In this document: in pieces, positions 24,171 to 59,523 of the stretch | Layout of the letters: the number at the start of each line of letters is the position of its first letter | Numbering within the stretch: the stretch's first letter is position 1 | Assembly: GCF_036588685.1 (NCBI RefSeq) | Contig: NC_086381.1 | Coordinates: 31,496,001-31,560,000 of the forward strand | Length of the DNA: 64,000 nucleotides | Reading direction: 5' to 3' | Source: Mytilus trossulus | Lineage: Eukaryota | Made by a program: the position numbers and the translations under genes | Notes under the pieces: model-generated | The model's input: the letters and a program-made list of their open reading frames with translations, nothing else | Told to the model about the DNA's origin: nothing | Databases searched by the model: none

Positions 24171-25494
24171 TATATTGTTTAGATAGGGACTTATATCGAC
24201 CGATGAATGCAATGCTATAGCCATATTACACGACCATAATACTTTATCACGTTCATTTGATGCGTTTTGTATGATTAAGATACACATTTTGTGGTTTCAC
24301 TTCCCATCTTTATAACCTTGAATGTTGTTTTTTCTTTATTTTTCGATGACGATCGTTCAAGCTTTAAATTATTATTCATACGATTAAGAATGTATGCATC
24401 AAGTGGTTGATGTTCGATCTGACAGACTCTACTTGATAAGAGCAAATAATGATCATCACCAAAGCCTTTCGCTTAATTGATAACATATACATGTCCGTTT
24501 TCTGTAAGCTAATTTTCAGGATCGATGGTCTAATTGAGACATATGACCGAAGTTATATAGTATAAGTGAACTGCGAATTCTATAGAAGACAACTTAAATC
24601 GTGAACAGATTTTCTTTTATTAGATTCTGGAATCTGAAATTACAAACGGGTTAATGAAATTATTTAGATGGAAATACCACTTCATCATTTTAAGATACAT
24701 TTACGGGCTTCTTTTTGTGTGTCTTTTCTATGGTCTTTTATATTTTAACCGCCAATATCAGCAATTCTTTCGTTAAAACATGTACTGATAAGACGGAGTC
24801 ATCAAATTTACTTAATATGTTAGCCAATATGATAGCCCTTTATTTTTAATATTACATGTACAGAAGCAAAAACATGAATGTTCTGGCAATTTTAAGTAGA
24901 AAATTATTAATCAAAAATCGAACGACAAAGGCTATTTCAAAAAGTGGGAAGGCTATTAAATCTACTACATTATAACTGCAGTTTGTACATCATTAGTGGC
25001 ATTACCTCAATATTCGGATAGCTATGAAACTTTACTCTCTTCTTCAACACTTTGTTAGAGGCCTGTTCAAGATAAAATTAAACATGAATAATTGTCTCCG
25101 AAAATAAACCAATAAACTGAAACACATTTTGTTTAACATTAAAAGTACTGATGATTACTCCATACTATGCATACAGATAACATCAAATGGGTGGATGCTG
25201 CACAAGGCTCTTTTAAGTATTTCTATATAATGTTTGAGATTGATTCATAGACTTTTCGTGTTTTAGCCAAATCTAGCTGTAGTAAAGTGTTTTTCTGCAT
25301 ATCTGATTATTATTGTACAAATGAAATAAGACTGTATCCATCATACTTATATTGAAGAAAAACTGAGATGAACTTTGAGCTATATTTATGATTTGACCAG
25401 GCTTTCCAAAACGATACAAAACATATTCAATGGTAATGTATAAAATAGTAATTACTTATTTTATATCATATTTGAAGGAGAAAATTGTTCACCA

Positions 25495-25862
25495 AAAACT
25501 AGGGGTGATCTCAGGTGCTCCGGAAGGGTAAGCAGATCCTGCTCCACATGCGGCACCCGTCGTGTTGCTTATGTGATTACAAATCCGGTAAATAGTCTAA
25601 TTCTGTAGGTCAAATTCATGAAAGGGAAGGGGATTGTAGTTACGAAATAAGGAACATATCCGATATCATTTGTGAAACGGTTATTCCATAACAGTCAACC
25701 AACTCGTGATGGCGTCCGTTAAATTAACGAAGGGGTGATTTCAATTTCACCATTTGGAACTCTTGGTTTAATAGCTTCCTTGTGAGCAGTAACCCTCTAT
25801 CAAGAAAATCATGATAGGAAATGCAAGCACGGGAATATCGTATCAATTGGGAGATATATACC
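25495..25862 (-). mobile_element. Penelope-like element family 2, 3' fragment with RT C-terminus
   Basis: minus-strand GVYISQLIRYSRACISYHDFLDRGLLLTRKLLNQEF..., homologous to GVYISQLVRFGRVC...KLLHQGF in the 55807-57123 RT; second copy at 49000-50060. Confidence 0.8.
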
Positions 25863-26944
25863 TGAGGTTTCACAATACTCGCCAGTATCAGATGCAGATG
25901 GACTACTTATTAGAGGGTTTGCGCTCCTGTATTTGTTCTTTTGATGAAAAAGTCGGTCGTTTTTTCAAATGTTTATCAATGCTTCCATGAATCGATTGCT
26001 ATTAATATAATTGTGTAAATGTATATTCTTTATTTTTTTAACACATTGTTATTGAAATTACCTAATCAACCTATCGTATATTCCTTTTTTAGCAATATCA
26101 ATGGTTTGTTGCTAGTAACACAAGACTTTTTTTTACAATTCTGGCATACCCAAGTTCACCACTGGTCTTGGTATAGTTCTTGTTGCTCAACCTTTAGATC
26201 GATGTCAAGTGTATTGATTTTGCTGTTTGTCTCTTTTTAGATTGACAGTTTTGATCATATAAATATTTTCTGTTTTGTGTTAAAAAATATAGTTACTTAA
26301 TCTGTAACAGTTATTTGTCTTGCATTGTTATTGATTTCTGTTCTAATGATTAACGATACTTATTAATCATCAAGGAAGTTCCGTTGACATGTCCGCTTAT
26401 TTCCTGGAGTAAATTGACAACTTAAATAATGCCTTGTCCAAAATGAACAATGTGCAATTGCTCAATACTGATCGTCGTTCTTAGGCGATCCTAAATAGTT
26501 TATTATTATTGAATTTACATGACATATGTTTTTTTTTATATAGTATCAAAACGTTTTCTTTTGAAATGTAAAAACTCTATGTATCTGCAATTATAGAAAA
26601 ACAACTGAAGTTTCTGCATATATTCTTCTTCAATTCATGGTTTTATTCAGTTAAACAGATATCCTTTTTTTGGTTTAATGCGAATTTTTAAAAGTTAAAA
26701 AAAAAAATTAAAAGAAAGGCTGAATAATAAATAAAAGTGTGCAAATAACATGTACAGATGTTATATGTATGAATTAGCAATCAATGGGGAAACAGTTTAA
26801 ACTCAAAAATGGCAGGTACAATTTGAAATGGTCAATGCAGCAATAATCAAATTCAAAATTATGCACAACAAAACCGTTTATTTTTGTTGATGTGTGTTTG
26901 GAATTTTGATAATAACCTTATGGTATTATATACAAAAATATATA

Positions 26945-27416
26945 TATCATATTCTTCATTGCAATGTGTGATCTAACATGTATCATATTCTTCATTGGAA
27001 TGTGTGATCTAAAATGAATCAAATTCTTCATTGCAATGTGTGATCTAACATGTATCATATTCTTCATTGGAATGTGTGATCTAAAATGAATCAAATTCTT
27101 CATTGCAATGTGTGATCTAACATGTATCATATTCTTCATTGGAATGTGTGATCTAAAATGAATCAAATTCTTCATTGCAATGTGTGATCTAAAATGAATC
27201 AAATTCTTCATTGCAATGTGTGATCTAAAATGAATCAAATTCTTCATTGCAATGTGTGATCTAAAATGAATCAAATTCTTCATTGCAATGTGTGATTTAA
27301 AATGTATCATATTCTTCATTGTAATGTGTGATCTAAAATGTATCATATTCTTCATTGTAATGTGTGATCTAAAATGTATCATATTCTTCATTACAATGTG
27401 TGATCTAAAATGTATC
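26945..27416 (+). repeat. 36-bp minisatellite, ~13 copies
   Basis: unit (t/a)atca(t/a)attcttcattg(c/g/t)aatgtgtgatctaa(a/c)atg. Confidence 0.95.
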
Positions 27417-27902
27417 GAATCAACATGTACAGTAACTTGTTGATTACAGTTTGTTCTTCACGCATTGACTAATTTTCTTTGAAGAAATATCGTCAACTAT
27501 TTTTTTGTCTTGCTATATGTCCTTGGTCAAGGTAATTTGGCAGTATTGTAATTCAATGGTACATATGCTTATAGAGGGCATAACTGCGTCACAGATGGTT
27601 ATGTCACACCTTTTTTTAACTCCGTTCGGAAGTGTTCCAGTACTATTGTTATTTCATTTGAATCTTGACTTCAGTAATCAAAAGTTCATTTCGACGGCAC
27701 ATCTTGTCCTCATATATCCCCTATTGAAGCGTTCCTCAGATTTTGTTCTTGTATTCAGAATTTGAGCCATAACCCTTGGCCGTAACGGAGAGTCAATGAA
27801 ACCTAAAAGACAGCTAAGGTATCTTTTTTAGATGAATAGTTTGTAAAGATTTTGATTAGAAAGATTGAAAGAATCAATAATTGCACCAGGGTGTTATACT
27901 AC

Positions 27903-38878: not shown

Positions 38879-40006
38879 TTAATGCAAAATACACCTGGTT
38901 CTACAGAACATCACTCGTTTACATTGTGTAAGGAATGTATGATCTAGGCACAAATACACAAACGGATTTATAATGTTGTTGAGTAGAAAACTTCTTGATA
39001 AAATAGGAATAATTCCTTGGGTTATACTATCCGACTTGTACTGACCATTTGAAAGGGCAGCGACCATTTTCACTGTTATATAAGGTAAATAACTTAAAAT
39101 AAAGGCAATGCTCAAAACAAATGCTGTCTTAGACACTCTTCTTGATTCCCGATTTCTTTGCGAAGTTTTCCGTTGTCTTTGGGGGGATTTTATACCGGCC
39201 CCGGAAGAGTTATCTTTATTTTTTTTACTAACAGTTTTACTTGAAATGCTACTTTCATCTCCTAATGTAACTGTTTGAACACCACTTTGCTCATTAGGGA
39301 TGTTTATCTGCGCTGATATATGTATAGAACTTGTTGACCTGAAATTCCCTTTTCTTCTGAGTTTATTCCATATGATCGCATATATCGTAATTAATGAAGA
39401 GACACATAGTATAAACCCTACAAGCAACACAAAACTGTAAGCAAAGGGATGTGTTGTGCGCTTATAGCTGTCGGCTATACCGCAGTCATACCCAGTTATA
39501 TTGTTTTTTCGTTGTTTTAAATTTATTCCACTTAATATACCTTCAGGCCAGGAAACTGCTGTTACAAAGCTCCCAAGAATAATGACACAAACCAAAGCTT
39601 GACGTGTTGATAAAGGAACTTTTAATGGCCACCAAATTCTATATAGTCTGTTAGCGGACATCATTACTAGCAAAAGTGCAGCCATTACAGATAGATGAAC
39701 ACTAATTACTTTGAACGACTTACATGCACTCTCTGAATAAAATGTTAACTGGTGTGTCTGCTGGTAAAATTCAAAAGGGATATGTATTATGCACATAAAA
39801 AAATCTACAATAGTAATGGTACGAATAAAAGTCCAGTGTGCTCCTTCGAGTTTCCATAATGATCCGAAATATATAAGAATTACCAAAGTATTCCCAGGTA
39901 TCCCGATAACCACGACTAATGATAAGTAAACTATTGTCGGAATACGTTCCATCAATTCCTCCGTATTCAAGGTCTCCAAAGTAATTGGTGCCTCCGAAAC
40001 ATTCAT
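38879..40006 (-). CDS. orphan rhodopsin-class GPCR (CCK/peptide-receptor-like), copy 1
   Basis: 375 aa, 7 hydrophobic segments, GIPGN (TM1), TM2 Asp, Cys pair (ACK / YDCG), SANRL at the DRY position, SYLPY (TM6), NPFVY (TM7). Confidence 0.93.
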   Translation of the reverse strand: MNVSEAPITLETLNTEELMERIPTIVYLSLVVVIGIPGNTLVILIYFGSLWKLEGAHWTFIRTITIVDFFMCIIHIPFEFYQQTHQLTFYSESACKSFKVISVHLSVMAALLLVMMSANRLYRIWWPLKVPLSTRQALVCVIILGSFVTAVSWPEGILSGINLKQRKNNITGYDCGIADSYKRTTHPFAYSFVLLVGFILCVSSLITIYAIIWNKLRRKGNFRSTSSIHISAQINIPNEQSGVQTVTLGDESSISSKTVSKKNKDNSSGAGIKSPQRQRKTSQRNRESRRVSKTAFVLSIAFILSYLPYITVKMVAALSNGQYKSDSITQGIIPILSRSFLLNNIINPFVYLCLDHTFLTQCKRVMFCRTRCILH

Positions 40007-40762
40007 GATAACTCGCTCTTATGAGGACTTAATTTTTAAACTTCATTAAATCGTTGTCTAAAAAGTAAACAGAAAAACATTATTATGATGCACATTTATT
40101 TTACATTTCAAAATGAATGCAAGGTAAACATACATAGCTTCCCGGCCAATAATATGTTATTTTAAAAGAGAAATTACCCGATGATAACATATAAAAGGAT
40201 GTGGTACGAGTGTCAATGAGAAAACTCTCCATCCAAGTCATAAAGTACATGGCTTCGTTAATTAATTCATTTAAAATGCTCCGTTAATTAATTTATTTAA
40301 AATGTTCTTCATATGAAAGTCAAAATAGTTATAAACTTCGCATGATGATAAAATTGAGAGACTTTCTAACATATAAATTGTTATTTGTCTTCTAAAGCTT
40401 ACTATTAAACTGTTTTCAATTGTTAAAAGTTGAAATTGTTATACATAACTCAATCATATTAAGACATATTTTTAAAAGAAACCAATAGTCTGTGGAAAAT
40501 AATCGTGAATCACTTTAATATCAGCTAACACTTTGATCCAATCAATCTAGTAACTAAAACATGGTTTGATTTTTATCCAATGTACTTAGTTTATATTCAT
40601 ATTTTAAAAATACTTCAGACTAATGGAATTTGAAAAATTAAAAACAAACCTACCGTTCTTCAAAAGATTGTGAACGTTTTTACTAAGGACAGGAAACAAG
40701 GAAAATAAAAATCATTTGTTATGTTATGCAACGCTTACATTATATAAAAAGGTTAAATATTT

Positions 40763-44320: not shown

Positions 44321-45430
44321 TCACCTAACTCTACAAAATAATACTCGTTTGCAATGTGTAAGGAATGTCTGATCTAGACAAACATACACAAACGGATTTA
44401 CAATATTGTTGAGGAGAAAACTTCTAGATAAAATTGGTATAATTCCTTGAATGACACTATCTGGCTTGTACTGACTGGTAGATAGGGCGGAGAACATTTT
44501 CACTGTGATATAAGGTAAATTACTAAAAATAAATGCAATGCTTATAAAAAATGCTGTTTTTGTCACTTTTCTTGATTTTCGATTTCTTTGCGAAGCGTTC
44601 CTTTTTCTCTGGATAGATTTGGTACTGGAGCCGGAAGAATTATCTTTGATTTTCTGACTTACAAATTTATTTGAAAAGCTACTTTCATGTTCTAACTTAA
44701 CAGTTCGGACACCACTAGACTCATTAGGGATGTCTATCTGTGGATGTGCAGAATTTGTTGACCTGAAATTTCCTCTCTTTCTGAGTATATTCCATATGAT
44801 TGTATACATTGTTATTAAAGTAGAGACACATACTATAAAGCCTACAAGTATCACAACGCTGTAAGTGAAGGAATGTATTTTGCGCTTATACCTGTCAGCT
44901 AGACCGCAGTCATACCCAGTTATATTGTTTTTTTGATGTTTTAGATTTATTCCACTTAATATACCTTCAGGCCAGGAAACTGCTGTTACAACGATCCCAA
45001 GAACAATGACGCTAACAAAAGCTTGACGTGATGATAAAGGAACTTTTAATGGCCACCAAATTCTATGCAGTCTATTAGCGGACATCATCACTTGCAACAG
45101 TGAAGCCATTACAAATAGATGAACACTAATCACTTTGAACGACTTACATGCACTCTCTGCATAAAATGTTAACTGGTGTGTCTGCTGGTAAAATTCAAAA
45201 GGGATAAGGATTATGCATATAAGGAAATCTACAATAGTAATGGTACGAATAAAAGTCCAGTGTGCTCTTTCAAGTTTCCATAACGATCCGAAATATATCA
45301 GCATTACCAAAGTATTCCCAGGTATCCCGATCACCATGACCAATGATAAATAAACTATTGTTGGAATACGTTCCAACAATTCCTCCGTATTCAAGGTCTC
45401 CAAAGTAATTCGTGCTTTCGAAACATTCAT
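44321..45430 (-). CDS. orphan rhodopsin-class GPCR, copy 2
   Basis: 369 aa intact paralog; SANRL, SNLPY, NPFVY. Confidence 0.92.
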   Translation of the reverse strand: MNVSKARITLETLNTEELLERIPTIVYLSLVMVIGIPGNTLVMLIYFGSLWKLERAHWTFIRTITIVDFLICIILIPFEFYQQTHQLTFYAESACKSFKVISVHLFVMASLLQVMMSANRLHRIWWPLKVPLSSRQAFVSVIVLGIVVTAVSWPEGILSGINLKHQKNNITGYDCGLADRYKRKIHSFTYSVVILVGFIVCVSTLITMYTIIWNILRKRGNFRSTNSAHPQIDIPNESSGVRTVKLEHESSFSNKFVSQKIKDNSSGSSTKSIQRKRNASQRNRKSRKVTKTAFFISIAFIFSNLPYITVKMFSALSTSQYKPDSVIQGIIPILSRSFLLNNIVNPFVYVCLDQTFLTHCKRVLFCRVR

Positions 45431-46654
45431 GATAACTCTTTCTTTTGATTAAATTATTAACTTTCATGTAATTAATGTCTACAAAGAAAATAAAAATGGA
45501 CGTTGAAGATACACATTTATTTGTTTCAAAAAACATGCATAGTAACTATATATAATTTATTAATGTTGTGTTATTTTGAAATAGAATCATAAAAGAAAGG
45601 GATAAAAGCAGTAAGAAGTCAAACTTTGTCAAAATAAGCTAAAACTCGTCGCTGATGTATTATTTACCTGCAAGTGAAAAATCTAACCTCATTTGAATTC
45701 GTATATTTATGACCGTCAATTTTACCATTTACCGGAAATTTGCTACGCATGTACTTTTAAAAGTTAAAATATGTCTACATTAAAGGTCAAACAAGGATAA
45801 AGCATTTCGTTTACTGATTCGATACACAAACGAAAAATCATTTGCATATATTTAAAAACGATGTAACATTTTTTTTTTAATCAAATTGCACGTGGCGAAG
45901 GTCATGTTGGTGGTGAATAAGATGGCGTCTAGACTATATACACACGAAATGCTGATACACTTTATCGAGTCAATGCATTGTGAATTGTTCATGTATTTAT
46001 ACTTTTTTTCTAGTTTGGATATGCGTTTTAGCATGTATAAATCATAAAGAAGAATTTGGATCAATTCGGTTTAGATCAATTTGACAGCTAATGCTCTTTA
46101 AAATAAACTTACCAGTTGTAAATCACGATCGTTAAAAAAACCCAAATCATTTCGTTTAAATGTGCATAATGAACAATACTGCTGGAAACTGTTAATACAG
46201 TTTAAGTACTTTCACCACAAAAGTCCAAATATTTGAAAACTTCAAATACATGTAATAATTGCATTGAGAGACTCTCTAAAAAAATCTTTTTGATGGCTAA
46301 ATAAATCTCTTTCATTCTTTAATGGCTTAATGATGTGATTGTTATAAATAACTTAACCATTTAAGTCATATTTTAAAAAGAAATCAATGATCTGTTGATA
46401 ATCTAACTAATCGTGAATAACTTTTATATCAGCTAAAATGTTGATTCAATTAACCAAACTAATACATAATTTATTTTTTATCCTTTGTACTTAATTAAAA
46501 TACTTCAAACTTATTAAAATGGAAAGATAAATTTCAAAATAAACTTACCGTCCAAATGTTTCTGAAAACTTTTACGAGTTACAAGAAACAAGGAAAATAA
46601 AAATTATCTGATCTCTTATGCAACGCTTTCACTATTTCAACATGTGAAATATTT

Positions 46655-46746: not shown

Positions 46747-49000
46747 TGTTAGTTCAAGTGATTTATGCAATTGTATCAGGTTTGCATACATGTGTATTTA
46801 CACTAACAGCAGTTTAATACAGTTAGAGATCATCAGAGATATTAATTAAGAGTTATAATTAGATTTCTTTGTTTGACTATTCAGCCCTTATGATTTGCAT
46901 ATAGTGGCCTAGTAAATTTATGTATTGAGGACGGAGCAGTCGGAGCACGGATAAATGGCGCACCCGGATTACCGGAGCATCCGGATTCCTGGAGCACGGA
47001 ATACACGGAGCCCGGTTCCCTAGTAGTTTATATTTGTATCCGAGCTTGAAGAAGCTATATAAAAGAGAGAAAGAGCGTTAGATTGGGGGGAGGGAATTTA
47101 TAGTGAGGAGAGAACAGTTGCGTTTATATACTAGAGAGGACAACCGTGTTATTGAGCATACAGTTAGATGTTAATTTTGTTAAACTTGTTTAATGTTATT
47201 TTGATAATACAGTACTGAACTTTTATTCGACTTGGTCTTTATATTCACTTACAAGACTTTGTTCAGACTGCACCAGGATCCATTTATTTTTTATACATGT
47301 GACTAGTAGGATTCCCTTAATAATACTACCAGTAGATTTCAAGTGTTACCTTACTGTGTGTGTCTTCAACGAACTTGTAATAATATAATGATATAACCAA
47401 TAACAACAATAAGGACATCAACTCAGGCTCCAATGCTCTCTCGTGTAAGTCAAAATTACGTAAGAAACCAGGTAACTATCCCAGCAGATTCTGGGTTGGG
47501 TAGTTTGCCTGCCACTGGTACTAACAATGGTATTTGCACGGAGACTATGCCAGATATCCGGTATCGCCGGATGTTCGAGCATTGTTCACACAGGAACAAT
47601 CATGATAGAGCTTCAAGGACTGGAAATGAGCAATACGGGAAAAAGACGGAGGAAATGGTTGGAAGAAATTTTGGCAAATATGGGTGAATTTGCTTATTCT
47701 CAGTAATGGCATGGTCGCACCAGCATGTATTTATTTTTCCTAACAACCAGGTTATACAGAAGTCTCAGGAATACGTTACGCTTTTTAAATACTTTGAAAT
47801 GAGCGTCACTGATGAGTCTTATGTAGACGAAACGCGCGTCTGGCGTACTAAATTTAAATTATAGTCCTGGTACCTTTGAGAACTATTTTGACTGGACTGA
47901 TAGTTTAGATAGGATTATTAATTTGTATAATTGTTCTGAAATAATATTGAATTTCATTCTAAATGGTCTAACTCAGGAAATAGACAATGCTTCAAGAACA
48001 TGGTCTTGGAAGATACGAAGCCAAGATGACATTTGTATAAAATATATCTATAGGACTCCGGCTCGCACCATAATGGATGAAAACAATACTCCCTATGATT
48101 CAGATGAAATTCCCTCTTAATGTTACAATTAACACTGCAATTAGAGGAGAGGTTTTTCATGCCACAAAACCGGGTTTAACCCACCTTTTTTCATAAAATG
48201 TCCTGTACCAAGTCAAGAAAATGGCCATTGTAACCTTATAGTTCGTTTGTCTCTGTGTGTTACGTTTCAGGGCTTTGTCTCTGTTGTGTCGTAGTTCTCT
48301 TATATTTGAAACGTTTCCCTCAGTTTTAGTCTGAAACCCGGATTTGTTTGTTTTCTCTTTTGATTTATGAATTTTGAACAGCGATATAATACTGTTGCCT
48401 TAATTTACTCCTGTCCTAGTTCTTATAGCCCTGCTATTAACAGGCACACGGAAATTGAGGTATCCGGGCAAGAATCGGAAAACATGGGCACATCGACAAA
48501 ACAATTTCAATCGCCAGATTTTCAGTCAGGCAGATGAATTAACTACAGATACGCCGAAAAACAGGTGTTTTCGTGTAAGCAAATGATCGACCAGCAAGTG
48601 AATATTCTGTCCGTAGAACATTTTCTGAAGTTAGCAATGATGTATGGAATGAGTTTATTCAATACTTTGAGAATATATCCGAGTTAAATGTATGGAACAA
48701 TGAAAAGTCACGAGGGGTCCTACTTAGTACTTTCAATGGTCCAGCTGATCAATGTATGCATACGGGATACCAGTTATAATACAGAGAGATTGTAGTCGCC
48801 TTGAAAGAAAGTTGAAAGAGAGATAAGGATACACAGCGATGAAAGAAAGGTTATGACAGGGCCATTACTGAGTGAGATAACACCGGATGAATCTTTTGAG
48901 GATTTGTACCGTAGAGCGTATCCGAGCAATCCTGAGAGTGTAGAGGAGAATTAAACCTGAGAGTGTAGAGAAGAATTCTATTAAAGCGTTCCTTTACAAG
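46747..49000 (+). mobile_element. degenerate Ty3/gypsy element: 5' LTR (46747-47526) + gag relic
   Basis: TGTTAGT...ACTAACA then aTGG; TATATAAAAG at ~47056; broken gag at 48605-48995: VRRTFSEVSNDVWNEFIQYFENISELNVWNNEKSRGVLLSTF...TAMKER...EDLYRRAYPSNPESVEEN/SIKAFL. Confidence 0.75.
47804..47845 (+). ncRNA. type I hammerhead ribozyme (retrozyme fragment ~47790-47888)
   Basis: cgtca-CTGATGA-gtct tatgt agac-GAAA-c gcgc g-TC-tggcg; consensus core, predicted cleavage after 47840. Confidence 0.9.
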
Positions 49001-50060
49001 AAGGGCGACATATACCAGAGAGTCAGTCAAACTCTTAAATCGAAAATAAACTGACAACGCCATGACTAAAAATAAAAAAGACATGACACGGGTTGTGTTC
49101 ATATATGGTATGATGGTATGATACTAAACCCCTAACGGGAGGGATTGTGCCTAATATTCATATGATGAAGACAATCGTTCAATCAATGTAATTGAACTCT
49201 GGAGATTTCAGTTAACTGCTAGTAGTCTTTTGCTATATATCTATAACTGTCATTTTGTTTATTTTCTTTTGTTACATCTTCTGACATCAGACTCGGACTT
49301 CTCTTGAATTGAATTTTAATGTGCGTATTGTTATACATTATTTTTCTACATTAGATAGAGGTAAAGGAGAGGGTTGAGATCTCATAATAAATGTTTAACT
49401 CCGCCGCATTTTTGCGCCTGTCCCCAGTCAGGAGCCTCAGACCTTTGTTAGTCTCGAATTGTTTTTAACTTTAGTTTCTTGTGTATGAATATGAGTTTAG
49501 TATGGCGTTCATTATCACTGAACTAGTATATATATTTATTTAAGGACCAGATAAAGGACGCCTCCTGGTGTGGGAATTTCTCGTTGCATTGAAGACCTAT
49601 TGGTGACCTTATGTTGTTGTCTGTTATATGGTCGGGTTGTTGTCTCTTTGAAACATTCTACGTTTCCATTTTCAATTTCAAACAATAGTACATATGAAAC
49701 AACAAAGAAAACTAAAGACTAAGCAACACGAACACCACCAAAAGCTTGGATTGATCTCAGGTGCTCCGGAAGCGTAAGCAGATCCTGCTCCACATGTGGC
49801 ACCCATCGTGTTGCTCATGTTATTACAAATCCGGTAAAAGTCAAATTATGTAGGTCACATTCATGAAATGGAAAGGGATTTTAGTTACGACGTAAGGAAC
49901 GTATCCGATTTCATCTGTGAAACGGTTATTCTATAACGGTCAACCAACTTGTGATGGCGTCCGTAAAAGTTACGAAGGGTTGTTTCAATTTCACCATTTG
50001 AAACTCTTGGTTTGATAGATTTTTTATGAGAAGCAACCCTTTATCAATAAAATCATGATA
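49000..50060 (-). mobile_element. PLE family 2 3' fragment, split by a Naiad tail insertion
   Basis: 49745-50060 matches 25500-25815; its tail continues at 49000-49081 and 49680-49745. Confidence 0.75.
49082..49680 (+). mobile_element. 5'-truncated Naiad 3' region with mutated SECIS
   Basis: aligns with 57152-57750; SECIS 3' GA changed to AA at 49153. Confidence 0.88.
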
Positions 50061-51142: not shown

Positions 51143-52294
51143 TCACTTTGCTCTACATAATAATATTCGTTTACATTGTGTAAGGAATGTTTTATCTAGG
51201 AAAACATACACTATCGGATTTATAATGTTGTTGAGTAGAAAACATCTAGATAAAATAGGAATAATTCCTTGGATAATACTATCTGACTTGTACTGACCGT
51301 TTAAAAGGGCTGCGACCATTTTCACTGTTATATAAGGTAAATAACTTGAAATGAAGACGATACTTATAACAAATGCAGTTTTTGTCACTTTAATTGATCC
51401 CCGATTTCTTCGCGAAGTGTTCCTTTGTCTGTTGAGAGATATTTTACGGGAGCCGGCAGAATTACCTTTAATTTTATGACTAACAGTTTTATTTGATATG
51501 CTACTTCCATCTTCTAATTCAACTGTTTGAACGCCACTTGACTCATAAGGGATGTCTATCTGCGGATGTACAGAACTTGTTGATCTGAAATTTCCTCTCT
51601 TTCTGAGTTTATTCCAAATGATCGCATATATCGTTACTAATGAAGCTACACACAATATAAACCCAACAAGCAACACAAAACTGTAAGCAAAGGGATGTGT
51701 TGTGCGTTTATAGCGGACGGCTACACCGCAGTCATACCCAGTTATATTGTTTTTTCGTTGTTTTAGATTTATTCCACTAAATAAACCTTCAGGCCAGGAA
51801 ACTATTGTTACAAGGATCCCAAGAACAATGACACAAACCAAAGCTTGACGTGACGATAAAGGAACTTTTAATGGCCACCAAATTCTATGCAGTCTATTAG
51901 CGGACATCATCACCAGCAACAGTGAAGCCATTACAGATAGATGAACACTAATCAATTTGAACGACTTACATGCACTCTCTGCATAAAATGTTAACTGGTG
52001 TGTCTGCTGGTAAAATTCAAAAGGGATAATGATTATGCATATTAGGAAATCTACAATAGTAATGGTACGAATAAAAGTCCAGTGTGCTCCTCTGAGTTTC
52101 CATAACGATCCGAAATATATCAGAATTACCAAAGTGTTCCCAGGTATACCGATAATCATGACCAATGATAAATACAATATTGTGGGAATACGTTCCATAA
52201 TTTCCTCAGTATTCAAAGTCTCTAAAGTAATTGGTGCTTCCGAAACATTCATGATATCTCTTTCCTTCTGAAATTGGAAATTTTTAACTATCAT
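51143..52294 (-). CDS. orphan rhodopsin-class GPCR, copy 3
   Basis: 383 aa ORF; the Met shared with the paralogs (MNVSEAP) is at 52252; SANRL, SYLPY, NPIVY. Confidence 0.92.
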   Translation of the reverse strand: MIVKNFQFQKERDIMNVSEAPITLETLNTEEIMERIPTILYLSLVMIIGIPGNTLVILIYFGSLWKLRGAHWTFIRTITIVDFLICIIIIPFEFYQQTHQLTFYAESACKSFKLISVHLSVMASLLLVMMSANRLHRIWWPLKVPLSSRQALVCVIVLGILVTIVSWPEGLFSGINLKQRKNNITGYDCGVAVRYKRTTHPFAYSFVLLVGFILCVASLVTIYAIIWNKLRKRGNFRSTSSVHPQIDIPYESSGVQTVELEDGSSISNKTVSHKIKGNSAGSRKISLNRQRNTSRRNRGSIKVTKTAFVISIVFISSYLPYITVKMVAALLNGQYKSDSIIQGIIPILSRCFLLNNIINPIVYVFLDKTFLTQCKRILLCRAK

Positions 52295-53482: not shown

Positions 53483-54043
53483 TGTTTGTTTCTGTTTCAT
53501 AAGATAACTATATTTGATAATATCTTTCAAGTGCACCTTATGAAACAAAAACAACTGTCATTACATACAAAAATAATGATTTAGTCTAATTTAAATACAA
53601 GTGCATCATTTACAAATAATTATATAATTTAAACTTATTACATTGATGGTAACATACCGTGATGTCTATAAAGAGTATGTATCGCCGAACTGACTTGATA
53701 CTACAAGAAAGATCTCTGCAAAAACAATGCTAATATAACTGTGATTATCTTAAAACTGAGTTGGTAATGAAAGATAGGTCTTTGTATTTAAAAGATGGAA
53801 AATTACCTTTATTAAATGAGTTGATCAACATTCCCAAAAATCACTGGACAATGACTTTAATGTGCAAGTATTTTCAATAAACAACAAATATCAGCTTTAC
53901 ATACAAAAAAAAACATATAAATATGTGGTGTCTGTCATGCTTATAAAGCTACCGAGAAGTGTATCATCTTTAAAAGAAAACTGAATTGATTTGACATTTT
54001 CAGCCGAACACATTTATCAATTTTATATAACTTAAATTATTGT

Positions 54044-57000
54044 ATGCTGGTTCATATTCTGGACGCCAATCTTTGCTCCTTTATTATGTCATTCACTAAC
54101 AAAACAATTATGAAACTTAGAAATGGAAAAATACTAAATACTAAACTTGTTCAAAGGGTATCTACACGTCTCAATCTTCAAAATCGGTTATCTAAAAATA
54201 CTACCATCGCTAACATTTTTAACAATAAAAATCGTGGTTACCCTTCTATCGATAAGTGTCATGCCAAATAATGACTTACATGTCCCCGTCTTTCCACCAA
54301 CAATACGGTAAGGTCCACGTTTAATGGTCGCACATTTTCTTTAAATTTTGAAACTGATATAACTTGAAAAACAAACAGTATTATTTATTTACTCACATGA
54401 AACAAACCGGTGTGGTATTCAGTACGTAGGAAAAACTGGAAGAAATTTATCTAAACGCACTCAAGAATATCTGTATCGTTTTAAAAGACCAAATAAATTC
54501 AAAGTATCATTTACCAACACCTTAAGAAGCACAACCATCCTTTTAAATATTTAGCAGTTCAACCTTTAGAAGTAGTAAATAAGCAGCCTGGTGAATCGCA
54601 TTCAAAGTTTGTACGATCACGGAAAATAATTGAATTGAATTGGATTAAAAAATTACAGACAGTTTACCCTCTCGGTCTAAATAATAATATCATGGGAATT
54701 GGTAATATATCTAGAACCAATTCCGTTAACATTTTGGATATAGTTTCTAAAACTGTTCGTAAAAACCGTTCTCACGGTCGTAGAACAAATCGCAATCAAA
54801 GAAAATTTCGGGCCAATCATACCAATATTTCGGACCTAATTTCTATTTCAAAAAACAACGGCAGACATTATCTGTTAACAAAACTCTGTTCGTTGCCGGT
54901 TAATAAGTTAAATAAAATTTTGGAGGATTGCAACACAATTTCATATAGCAGTCCTAAGTATGAAATTGTTCAAATTATTATGGCATATTGTTATTCCAAA
55001 TTATTTCCAAAAATTGATCGCCCTGAAGATCATAAAAAACATTTTATTAAAATTAAGTATGTCAATAAAGGCTTTGATTTTGTATATATTGCCGGTATAT
55101 TTAACGACCATTCTGTTAAAGAACAAATTCCTGGATATTTTGACAATACTGAGCTACCTCTTATTTGTTATATGTACAAGAAATCTACCCGGAAATTTGT
55201 GTTTAATTATAGTCAATTGTGTAAAGATGTTAATATCAGTGAAACTACACCTACTTCATGTAATTGCAGTAATTCCGAATATATTTATGGACCCATTTCC
55301 CATGTTATAACAAGAGATCTTAACATCGTTCAAGACCGAGAGTTAAAATCATTCCTCAGTAAAGGACCTAAATATCGTCCCCCGTCTATTATTAATTGGA
55401 ATGAGTGTCGTAATATCTCCACGACTCACTCCATACTTACTGTATGAAATGGATAAAACGGGAAAAAGTTGACAAAAAATCTTTGGACTCTTTTTATAAT
55501 TCAGTAATGAAGATAGTTGATATACGTATTCAACATTTTAAAGAACATTTTACTATTAACAATAACCACAATAAACCTATTTCTCGTATCAAACATAAAC
55601 TAAAAGAACTAGCCAAGGAATTTGTTTTTGTCCCGGCCGATAAAGCTGCTAATAATATTATTATTGTTTGACGTAAATTTTACATTGAGGTTCTGAAACA
55701 GGAAATCACCATTTCACCAACATTCAAACTGACTCCATTTTCAGAAAACGAAATCTGTAACAAACATAAACTTTTAGCCACCGCTTTACAGGCAGAGCCA
55801 AATACAATGAAAGTCCCAACTATGTATTGGCTTCCGAAGCTACACAAAACCCCTTACAAATATAGATTTATTTCGTCTTCAAGCCATTGTTCAACTACTA
55901 AATTGTCTATTCTTCTTACCAGCACACTTGGTACAATTAAAAACCTTATAATAAATTGTTCAAATAAGGCCTTCGAAAATAGTGGAATAAATTACTTTTG
56001 GAGTGTCAAGAACTCGTTGGAAGTACTTGATAAATTGCATGCTTATATTGGTGATTTTGAATCTGTTCAAAGTTTTGATTTTTCTACCCTGTATACCATG
56101 TATACCACATTGCCTCACATTCTCATTAAGAAAATAATCACACACCTAATTAAATGGGCATTCAAAAAATCAGAATGTGAATATATATGTTCAAACTCTT
56201 TTAGGTCATTTTTTAGTAGCAATAAACAAAAAAACTATGTTAATTGGACATGCTTTGATACTATATATGCCCTTGAATTTTTACTAGATAACATTTTTGT
56301 TCGCTTTGGGGATTCCGTATATCGTCAGATTATCGGAATTCCAATGGGGACTAACTGTGTACCACTTATTGCGGACCTCTTTTTGTATTGTTATGAGTTA
56401 CAATTTATGACAAAAATAAGCAAAGACCCATCAAAACAACATCTGATAAACACAATTAATAATACTTTTAGATATTTGGATGATATTTTGGCTCTCAATA
56501 ATGACGACTTCAGTTTGTATATTAATGAAATTTATCCTGCTGAACTTACTTTAAATAAAGCTAATACTAACAATGACCACTGCCCTTTCCTCGATCTTGA
56601 TATCTATATCACTAACGGAAAGCTGAATACTAAAATTTATGATAAAAAGGATGATTTTTCATTTCCTATTGTTAATTATCCGTTTTTAGATGGTGACGTT
56701 CCCTTGTCACCATCTTACGGTGTTTATATATCTCAACTTGTACGATTCGGTCGTGTATGTAACAATGTTTTAGATTTTAACGAGAGAAATTTATGTATTA
56801 CTGATAAATTATTACACCAGGGTTTTCGATATCACAAACTAGTCAAAACATTTACTACATTTTATCATCGATATAAAGACATCATTCGTAAATATAGCTC
56901 AACATGCAGACTTCTTATACGTTCAGGTATTTCACATCCAATTTTTTATGGAAATATTCTGTATAAAGCACAAAGGTGTCAGTATTCACCTCAGAAACTT

Positions 57001-57123
57001 ACAAAACCTTTGAATAGACTTATTAAGAAGGGATATAATTACAATACTGTTGTCAAGTCATTAAAGATTGCATATTTTGGCGTTAATATTGAGTCACTGA
57101 TAAGGTCTTTGCGTCGGAACTAA
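54044..57123 (+). pseudogene. Naiad EN-RT polyprotein ORF with four Sec (TGA) codons, one TAA and three frameshifts
   Basis: ORF pieces 54044-54271, 54272-54634, 54635-55420, 55444-55671 and 55672-57123 join into one protein; lesions: TAA 54269, frameshifts ~54410, ~54504, ~55418, 9-bp duplication ~56090. Confidence 0.85.
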
Positions 57124-57173
57124 ACACATTTATTCTAAAAACAGTTGTTGGCATGACACGGGTTATGTTCTTC

Positions 57174-57240
57174 TCATATATGTTATGATGGTATGATACC
57201 AAACCCCTAACGGGAAGGATTGTGCCTGATGTTCATATGA
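57174..57240 (+). promoter_or_regulatory. SECIS element (type 2)
   Basis: tcatat..ATGAt-ggtatgatacc-AAA-ccc ctaac ggg-aa-ggattgtgcc-tGAt..atatga; ~50 nt after the ORF stop. Confidence 0.85.
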
Positions 57241-58584
57241 TGAAATCATAATCTTTCAGTCAGTTTAATTGAAGTCTGGAGCTGGCATGTCAGTTAACTG
57301 CTAGTAGTCTGTTGTTATTTATGTATTATTGTCATTTTGTTTATTTTCTTTGGTTACATCTTCTGACATCAGACTCGGACTTCTGAATTTTAATGTGCGT
57401 ATTGTTATGCGTTTACTTTTCTACATTGGTTAGAGGTATAGGGGGAGGGTTGAGATCTCACAAACATGTTTAACCCCGCCGCATTTTTGCGCCTGTCCCC
57501 AGTCAGGAGCCTCTGGCTTTTGTTAGTCTTGTATTATTTTAATTTTAGTTTCTTGTGAACAATTTGGAAATTAGTATGGCGTTCATTATCACTGAACTAT
57601 TATATATTTGTTTGGGGGCCAGCTGAAGGACGCCTCCGGGTGCGGGAATTTCCTGCTACATTGAAGACCTGTTGGTGACCTTCTGCTGTTGTTTTTTATT
57701 TGGTCGGGTTTTGTCTCTTTGACACATTCCCCATTTCCATTCTCAATTTTATTATTATTAAATACGTAAGACAAAGACAAAACATTTATTGAAACATAAA
57801 ATATTTACCGTAATAACTTTTATTAGCCACTTTTATTTAAATTTCCAAATTTAACACAGTTCTGGCTTTTTTCTGTCATACCAGTCAAAACTCGGGATAA
57901 TTGACCTCTTTAACTGATATGCCTTAAGTTGTCACATGCAGAAACAAACTTACTTTTTTACCAACCTTGATAATTCGACAATGTATGCGTCAATAAGATG
58001 TCAACTGAACAAAAATAACGAAAGACAACTAGTGAGTCATATACAATCTTCAACAACTATTAAATCTATATGTATTGTGCATAAATTAAACAGCAACAGA
58101 TCGATATTCAACTCCGATTCCCCCCCCCCCCCCCCCCCAAAAAAAAGTTTTGTTTTTATTAAGATAAAAAAAAAATACGACAGCTAGTGCATTAGAAATC
58201 TGCACCATTCTGATAAATGTGATAATCAAATGTGTAGGATTTATTTTTCAAAGATTTTATCACAAATCTCGGAAAACGGAAACCAGATAAAAGTCGTATA
58301 AAACTCTGGCCTTTACATAACATTCTGATTGCTAACGAAATCAGATTAAATTTCATATTCAGAAATGACTTAAAAAACAGGAAACAGGAAAATATGTCAA
58401 AAGTTATCCAAATCTAAGATTGTTTTGTCAATGTTTACCAAATATGTGCAGCGTATAAATATTCAATGAATCTCATTGAAACAATATTTAGGATAAATAT
58501 TAAAGTCAAAAGCTTTGTTCTACAAAATCAATCAAAATTTGAGTAGTAAATATAAATGTGACGTTTCAGTCAAATCTTCAGTTG

Positions 58585-59023
58585 ACTGAGCGTCACTGAT
58601 GAGTCTTATGTTGACGAAACGCGCGTCTGACGTACCTAAAATATAATCATGGTACTATTTACACAACTGGGTCGATGCCACTGCAAGTGGACGTTTCGTC
58701 CTCGATGGTATCATCAGCCCAGTAGTCAACACTTCGGTTTTGACATGAATATCAAATATGTGTTCATTTTTATAAATTTCCTGTTTACAAAACCTGAATT
58801 TTTATTTCGTAAAACTAAGGATTTTTGTTTGTCCTAGGCAAGATTACATTAGCCGTATTTAGTATAACTTTGGGGAATTTCGGATCCTCAATGGTCTTCA
58901 ACTTTGTACTTGTTTAACTTTATAACTATTTTGAGATGAGCATCACTGGTGAGTCTTATGTAGACGAAACGTTCATCTGGCGTACTAAATTATAATCCTG
59001 GTACTTTTGATACCATAACTATT
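58585..59023 (+). mobile_element. retrozyme: complete 350-nt monomer bounded by two type I hammerheads
   Basis: HHR1 at 58591-58632 (intact CTGATGA/GAAA/GTC, cleavage after 58627); HHR2 at 58941-58982 (CTGGTGA, mutated); spacing exactly 350 nt. Confidence 0.88.
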
Positions 59024-59329
59024 GTAAAGCTGTGGATAGTATTTATATTTCGAATATATCTAAATTTTCAATGGACCTGCGAAGTAAAAGAAAAAAGGAA
59101 TGTTCAAACAAACTTATTAGAACTGTATAAGTAGGGCTATTGATTAGTCTCAATAGACATGTTCATTATAAGCCGATACCGAAACCGGAACCGATACCGA
59201 AACCAAAATTATTAGTGAGGTAATTGATAAATGTTGATAATGCTAATTACCTCAACTCTCAAACTCTATTGTATTGTTTAGAATTTGAATACAATAGATG
59301 GAGTATTACTTCAAAAGTATGAATAATTC

Positions 59330-59523
59330 GAAATACTAAGGATTTGTTTTTTTATTATTACTGTAGCCGTATTTTGCACAACTTTTTTTGTAATTTTGCT
59401 CTTCAACTTTATACTTGATTTTCTTTTTAATTATTTAATCTCAGTATCACTGATGAGTTTTATGTAGACGAAACCTTCATCTGTCGTATCAAATTTTAAG
59501 CCTGGTATCTTTGACAGCTATGT
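59330..59523 (+). mobile_element. degenerate retrozyme partial monomer
   Basis: actaaggattt...gccgtatttt..caactttt...tcactgatgagttttatgtagacgaaac...cctggtatctttga. Confidence 0.75.

Follow-up and report, generated by a model that had tools for sequence, protein, structure and literature searches.

The hammerhead retrozyme of the mussel Mytilus trossulus is probably copied into DNA by the reverse transcriptase (RT)-endonuclease of N3, a cysteine-type Naiad element, through recognition of a 60-nt hairpin that both elements carry; we put the probability of this reading at roughly two in three. The sequence data support a Naiad as helper at the level of the clade, on the basis of a leader hairpin at the fixed end of the insertions and of targets other than microsatellites, and we infer that the RT binds the hairpin and is templated by an RNA circle. 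An earlier interpretation made from the letters of the locus alone (the sequence-only reading) had proposed Naiad-type RTs as mobilizers, which is supported for the clade but not for the selenoprotein-type family beside the retrozyme copy examined here. The return of animal retrozymes into the genome is an open question, for which Penelope-like elements (PLEs) are named only as candidates in the available text of PMC7229834 and PMC7761336. The N3 link puts a name to the enzyme, of which intact copies exist, and adds a signal of 60 nt and a predicted site of initiation; if true, it identifies the helper of an animal retrozyme and the signal at which copying starts, something that we found in no paper. 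Our literature search, outside of which lay subscription journals, Repbase and some supplements, found no paper tying the mussel retrozyme to a Naiad.

The locus lies in a 64,000-nt stretch of contig NC_086381.1 (positions 31,496,001 to 31,560,000, forward strand; hereafter the window), in which blastn detected seven retrozyme fragments. The features are listed in Table 1.

Table 1. Positions, within the window, of the retrozyme copy and the elements around it
Feature	Position	Strand	Remarks
Retrozyme insertion, 1.2 units, 5'-truncated	58587..59023	+	3' end coincides with the fixed end of the family; divergence from young units ~10%
Hammerhead 1 (HHR1), type I, core intact	58590..58633	+	predicted cut after 58627
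Spacer, cut site to hairpin	58628..58665	+	contains the family's insertion end point; 10 nt deleted in the window unit
Leader hairpin, common to the 5' start of N3 Naiad	58666..58723	+	80% over 71 nt, E 3e-11; fold z -3.7
Hammerhead 2 (HHR2), likely inactive	58940..58983	+	A6G and helix III palindrome broken
Older, separate retrozyme fragment	59312..59521	+	73% identity; same fixed 3' end
Selenoprotein-type Naiad neighbor, frameshifted, 5'-truncated	53990..57752	+	not part of the retrozyme, not its likely helper
SECIS-like hairpin of the window selenoprotein Naiad	57175..57239	+	SECIS_1 30.7 bits, below the gathering score of 35
N3 Naiad fragment (family is the likely helper)	25490..25862	-	97% identity
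Further N3 Naiad fragments	49680-50060 and 48998-49083		

Several features described in the sequence-only reading were borne out. Two type I hammerheads lie exactly 350 nt apart, the unit has no open frame longer than 65 codons (minimum of 60 aa), and helix III of HHR1 is a short palindrome (one A-U and one C-G pair closed by a GCGC loop, within a self-complementary 8-mer). HHR1 matches Rfam Hammerhead_1 at 33 bits against a gathering score of 34 (E 2e-4). The second hammerhead is indeed mutated, with A6G in its core (CTGGTGAG) and a broken palindrome. The 350-nt spacing is exact here but not special, as young units are mostly 352-356 nt long. The copy is not the complete, discrete monomer it was taken for, being a truncated 1.2-mer that differs from a young unit by 42 substitutions in 428 aligned bases, the 10-nt deletion and small insertions. 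Many tandem arrays, distributed over most chromosomes and with a repeat period of ~354 nt, match this copy at 85-87% identity. Since HHR2 carries A6G and has lost the palindrome, release of a monomer from this locus is unlikely, and the copy is probably dead. It represents an ordinary fossil of a mussel retrozyme family that is already known.

Assignment of the window hammerhead to the minimal class (min-HHR) of PLEs was rejected. Whereas min-HHRs have a long helix II, an extra base before position 10.1 and no helix III (PMC4209133), this hammerhead has a helix II of 3-4 bp, no extra base and a helix III of 2 bp. In the terms of that paper, it belongs to the canonical type I hammerheads of metazoans and has a short helix III. 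Obligate cleavage as a dimer, also assumed earlier, is doubtful, given that a cloned repeat of the Mytilus galloprovincialis retrozyme cleaves at ~0.1 per min in the available text of PMC7229834, and that most invertebrate type I hammerheads cleave as monomers (PMC7761336). The window copy is separated from the selenoprotein Naiad by 835 nt; this closeness is due to chance, because 9.6% of random positions are within 835 nt of a retrozyme fragment.

Identification of the repeat as a retrozyme was upheld. The intact hammerhead core has 16,975 exact matches in the genome, compared to none for a reversed-pattern control, and the units each carry a type I hammerhead, are arranged head-to-tail, are non-coding and fall within 150-450 bp. 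GC content is under 50% as judged by eye, and no LTR, PBS or PPT was apparent upon inspection of the unit. By size, ribozyme and copy number, the window repeat fits the published M. galloprovincialis retrozyme, the two being compared by description. In the available text of PMC7229834, the latter likewise has a type I hammerhead in tandem repeats of 350-390 bp (construct DRtz_Mg353), is non-coding, occurs in thousands of copies and is transcribed, with abundant circles. That text names PLEs or LINEs as mere candidates and describes no fixed 3' end, shared hairpin or helper family.

Transcription of the M. trossulus family was seen at the family level, with ~5,000 reads among 8-9 million in two stranded RNA runs. 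On a young copy, reads in hammerhead sense were ~2- to 5-fold more common in most bins, and the unique flanks of that copy had no reads. Much of the RNA signal is read-through, because about half of the reads (46-48% in the two runs) continue into unlike flanking sequence. Read ends did not pile up at the hammerhead cut site in either run, which is uninformative for circles. A circle junction and a tandem junction are indistinguishable in short reads. Separately, ~60 molecules start at one spot near a T-rich stretch, at unit position ~284 (L002:1783), in both runs.

Two further ideas about the RNA were rejected. A minus-strand hammerhead, which would give viroid-like processing in both polarities, was considered for a core-like antisense motif at unit positions 100-140 of retrozyme family A; in the family consensus this motif has A6G and lacks the G-C pair at the base of stem II, and it is absent from families B-E and belongs to the Naiad-type hairpin. 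Blocking of the hammerhead by the hairpin stretch within a circle was not seen in the predicted fold, and the predicted circle is weakly structured (z -1.6 for a young unit and z -2.2 for the window copy).

The insertions have one fixed end. Mapping of the ends covered 30 loci from searches and 20 that were fetched, followed by 1.2 Mb that included 664 kb of untargeted DNA. Among fragments of at least 88% identity, a set that includes loci chosen by retrozyme hits, 52 of 58 have 3' ends at unit positions 81-90. In the untargeted 664 kb, 28 of 36 3' ends fall at unit positions 66-90, a range set after viewing the data, and 5' ends are spread evenly. The hammerhead cut is at unit position 42, placing the fixed 3' end ~40-45 nt past it. 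Junction-spanning copies thus start ~40 nt inside the unit, and their template must therefore be a circle or an uncut multimer rather than a cut linear monomer. Across 20 arrays, units differ by 2.3% within an array and by 6.0% between arrays; private variants are present in all units of 15 arrays, and two arrays are internally as diverse as the between-array comparison. Such homogeneity fits one template copied several times, and also fits later expansion at the DNA level.

Target sites and ages were compared as the sequence-only reading had suggested, and the comparison excluded the Neptune type of PLE by its (TA)n targets but did not separate the Naiad families. A (TA)n tract adjoins 1 of 113 retrozyme ends, 1 of 51 N3 ends and none of 37 selenoprotein Naiad ends, versus 11 of 15 Neptune-type ends (p 7e-12). 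Target overlaps of 2-5 nt were found at four clear retrozyme empty sites, with six more ambiguous, out of 63 insertions; clear empty sites of retrozymes and Naiads together have overlaps of 2-7 nt, and most insertions have no usable empty site. Repeats of 6-8 nt flank 13 of 63 retrozyme insertions and none of 63 controls; for metazoan non-LTR retrozymes, target site duplications, when present, are expected to exceed 4 bp. This signature does not choose among Naiads. Age spreads of retrozyme and Naiad families overlap, and N3 is not separable in age from other Naiads, including the selenoprotein one. A putative retrozyme-Naiad chimera formed by template switch (L073) was rejected, as it is a Naiad nested in a retrozyme.

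The evidence that points to N3 is the 60-nt hairpin that lies just beyond the fixed end. The bases that follow this end resemble those that follow the tandem junction of a 1056-codon Naiad (z 7.3), while the same alignment test against the selenoprotein Naiad gave z 0.4. In a lenient scan of the whole retrozyme along a unit of the 1056-codon (Naiad_Mgal-type) family, the leader ranked first by only 0.5 points. With plain blastn, N3 bases 4-66 match the retrozyme hairpin at 84-87%. A covariance model (R1), built from 13 retrozyme hairpin segments alone and searched against 14 loci, gave 79 bits for the leader of N3 (E 1.5e-19), as against 24.6 bits for that of the Naiad_Mgal type (E 2e-4). In two selenoprotein-Naiad loci and six Neptune-type loci, nothing exceeded 10.7 bits; this best score (E 1.9) lies elsewhere than in the leader of the selenoprotein Naiad. 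A 92-bit match at L188 is a retrozyme adjoining the element of that locus. The leader of the selenoprotein Naiad was still unmatched by a wider model (R2) that included Naiad leaders.

The predicted folds of the window hairpin (z -3.7) and the N3 hairpin (z -3.6) agree, and 96.9% of cells pair in the hairpin alignment. The covariation signal is modest: three pairs change on both sides (four in the RNAalifold version), many columns are invariant, a one-column slide scores 0.092 against 0.096 for the hairpin pairing, and the shuffle test is inflated by related rows. In five retrozyme families with differing hammerheads, the hairpin lies 39-53 nt behind the cut. A pattern scan of metagenomes gave 17 loci, 15 of which were matched by the hairpin model; the other two (L345 and L346) were dropped. 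The matched loci comprise retrozymes with other hammerheads, N3, and a Naiad with 81% identity to N3 that, in a separate record, has a diverged 3' end and the same leader. Apart from the hexamer GGTA(T/C)C, which occurs in some families, retrozymes and Naiads have no 3' tail in common. The leader hairpin alone also occurs in two short tandem arrays (C12:27544251-27545094 and C5:60421833-60422404, with spacings of 131 nt and 78 nt), which may possibly be ribozyme-free passengers.

N3 is 3.37 kb long; exact matches to its end number 11,395 in the genome, and those to its leader 110. Open frames of 993-995 aa, free of TGA, are present in three of 11 copies that bear a leader, and the protein combines an N-terminal GIY-YIG domain with CxC and DKA motifs and a C-terminal RT. 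The element forms partial tandems (pLTR), is 5'-truncated and lacks a canonical hammerhead. In 20 N3 loci, 11 of 12 leader matches lie directly behind N3's own 3' end and the twelfth is at a locus edge, whereas 22 other N3 ends pass into flanking sequence without a leader; the geometry is the same as in the retrozyme. N3 is 55% identical to the 1056-codon, cysteine-type family, which by eye matches the listed Naiad_Mgal protein. At least two more Naiad families were seen as fragments without 5' ends, and a closer partner may exist. A link between retrozyme spread and a selenium-dependent enzyme, drawn in the sequence-only reading, was not sustained: the selenoprotein Naiad has no hairpin match, and N3 has cysteines and no in-frame TGA. 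N3 has no Rfam match at E up to 5, and thus no SECIS match, so it does not qualify as a selenoprotein element.

The selenoprotein Naiad of the window family has, in a young copy, four TGA codons where the Naiad_Mgal-type protein has cysteine. At its start is a stable hairpin with a GTGGA..TCCCCG core, in the same place as the N3 leader, so this family may cross-mobilize retrozymes. It is a young and abundant mussel family (window copy and L192-L220), and the main text of PMC8557442, in its available part, lists selenoprotein Naiads for clams and spiders only. Candidate helpers were surveyed from 149 matches of a GIY-YIG search, 30 loci and 20 fetched stretches being examined; neither Naiad RT piece was named by Pfam.

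In the mechanism that we favor, arrays would be transcribed mostly in hammerhead sense, as seen at the family level, and the hammerheads would excise unit-length RNAs that close to circles, as published for the mussel family. The Naiad protein would then bind the hairpin, nick AT-rich DNA and prime at a point that precedes the hairpin by a few bases and follows the cut by ~40 nt, where the fixed end is observed and priming is presumed. The enzyme would cross the junction, round the circle or follow an uncut multimer, and drop off at random, yielding insertions of 0.2 to many units that all share one fixed end at the 3' side; this pattern is observed, and the form of the template is presumed. 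N3 would use the same hairpin signal on its own tandem read-through RNA. More generally, Naiads may start reverse transcription from a portable 60-nt hairpin 3' of the priming site, which hammerhead circles of several mussel families would have hijacked, an extension that we regard as an even bet. If true, any small circular RNA would need no more than the hairpin to be loaded onto a telomerase-like, target-priming enzyme and copied into DNA over multiple rounds. The N3 link would also give a first handle on how ribozyme-free Naiads, which are dominant in many invertebrate genomes, recognize their own RNA.

The shared stretch could instead be a transcription start or RNA 3'-end signal, i.e. 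an internal promoter or a processing hairpin, derived from an N3-like Naiad. RNA would then span leader to leader, with the RT priming at the RNA end and arrays arising by template jumps. In N3 the leader does occupy the extreme 5' end, immediately ahead of the start codon, the available text of PMC8557442 mentions an internal promoter in the Penelope 5'-UTR, and the invariant columns fit a sequence signal. Pairing-preserving changes indicate an RNA fold, however, and RNA reads have no start or end cluster at the junction, mussel monomers are hammerhead-cut circles in the available published text, and the private variants found throughout 15 of the 20 arrays also argue against such a signal, which we consider unlikely. 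Less probable again is the selenoprotein Naiad as a main mobilizer. Its leader, although it has a hairpin of similar core, has no sequence or model match to that of the retrozyme, compared to 79 bits for N3, and its nearness in the window is chance. In favor of this family are its abundance and youth, the target signature that it has in common with retrozymes, an age spread that overlaps theirs, and nesting with retrozymes in both directions.

Frog retrozymes have been proposed to derive from canonical hammerhead-bearing PLEs, and the available text of 10.64898/2026.07.22.740005 links Xenopus retrozymes to pLTRs. A parent and helper of this Neptune/Nematis type is very improbable for the mussel, even though several young Neptune-type families in the genome have a C-terminal GIY-YIG domain and their own minimal hammerheads, located 50 to >100 nt before their ends. 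These hammerheads differ in sequence from that of the retrozyme, the hairpin is absent, and 11 of 15 ends are in (TA)n against 1 of 113 for retrozymes, although a Penelope/Poseidon family may have been missed by this survey of 50 loci from the 149 GIY-YIG matches. It is slightly less credible still that the repeat spreads as DNA, by satellite expansion or Helitron-like rolling circle, with RNA as a by-product. Long arrays exist, with dozens of units at C1:269-285 kb, and one chimeric array (L320) clearly expanded at the DNA level. DNA expansion accounts for such arrays but not for dispersal. The dispersed fragments, which number in the thousands, are 5'-truncated and 3'-anchored and have short target overlaps, the mark of target-primed reverse transcription.

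Naiads in the available text of PMC8557442 resemble N3 in their partial tandems, in an N-terminal GIY-YIG domain and in the CxC and DKA motifs. They also lack canonical hammerheads, as N3 does, which made them unlikely partners on ribozyme kinship alone. N3 is not among the two Mytilus rows of that text, whose passages describe neither a leader hairpin nor a ribozyme-bearing passenger of Naiads, and whose Naiad_Mgal entry lists no insertion preference. In the available text of PMC11167929, the RT of Poseidon_Ac initiates at internal positions of its RNA that lie downstream of the hammerhead, and sequence 3' of the initiation site is required. The mussel retrozyme would resemble it in an internal start 3' of the cut, a need for downstream RNA and nicking at AT-rich DNA. 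Poseidon_Ac, in that same text, belongs to another PLE clade and has its own hammerhead and two start sites (a tail), whereas the mussel retrozyme has one start zone, no tail seen and a helper without a hammerhead. Vertebrate retrozymes described as pLTR derivatives (10.64898/2026.07.22.740005, available text) are likewise non-autonomous PLE passengers, by homology of element ends. That text covers Xenopus only and includes no mussel, other organism or Naiad partner. In contrast to Xenopus, the piece shared in the mussel is the 5' leader of a helper that lacks a ribozyme, and the hammerhead has another origin.

SINE-LINE pairs share a 3' tail. The likeness is that a short common structured RNA reveals which RT a parasite uses; the difference is that the piece shared in the mussel lies beyond the priming site and is missing from the insertion end. 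Unlike a SINE-LINE tail, it would work only on a circular or tandem template.

Other observations were made in the same loci. At 12 separate loci, a retrozyme contains a sense-oriented N3 insertion near unit positions 252-268, compared to none for a control anchor; this is perhaps just a preferred TTA target. At C7:40.31 Mb (L317-L324), a tandem array has ~351-nt units composed of the N3 3' end and half a retrozyme; this chimeric satellite keeps the hammerhead, lacks the leader hairpin and expanded at the DNA level. Four retrozyme copies lie within a 1.05-kb repeat beside TTAGGG-like repeats near the start of contig C1 (L061). At least five young Neptune-type families (L141, L157-L161, L171-L175, L134 and L170) each have a minimal hammerhead of their own, (TA)n targets and optional tails, and the hammerhead of one of them has a U3-A8 core swap. 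Two copies of a canonical-type PLE (L166 and L178) have in common a TGA that is in frame at a zinc-finger cysteine of the endonuclease, which may be a shared nonsense change. The window also contains a 36-nt tandem repeat (26838-27528), with a 179-codon open frame on the minus strand that has no Pfam match, and three tandem, single-frame rhodopsin-family GPCR genes (Pfam 7tm_1) on the minus strand at 38879-40018, 44321-45448 and 51143-52294.
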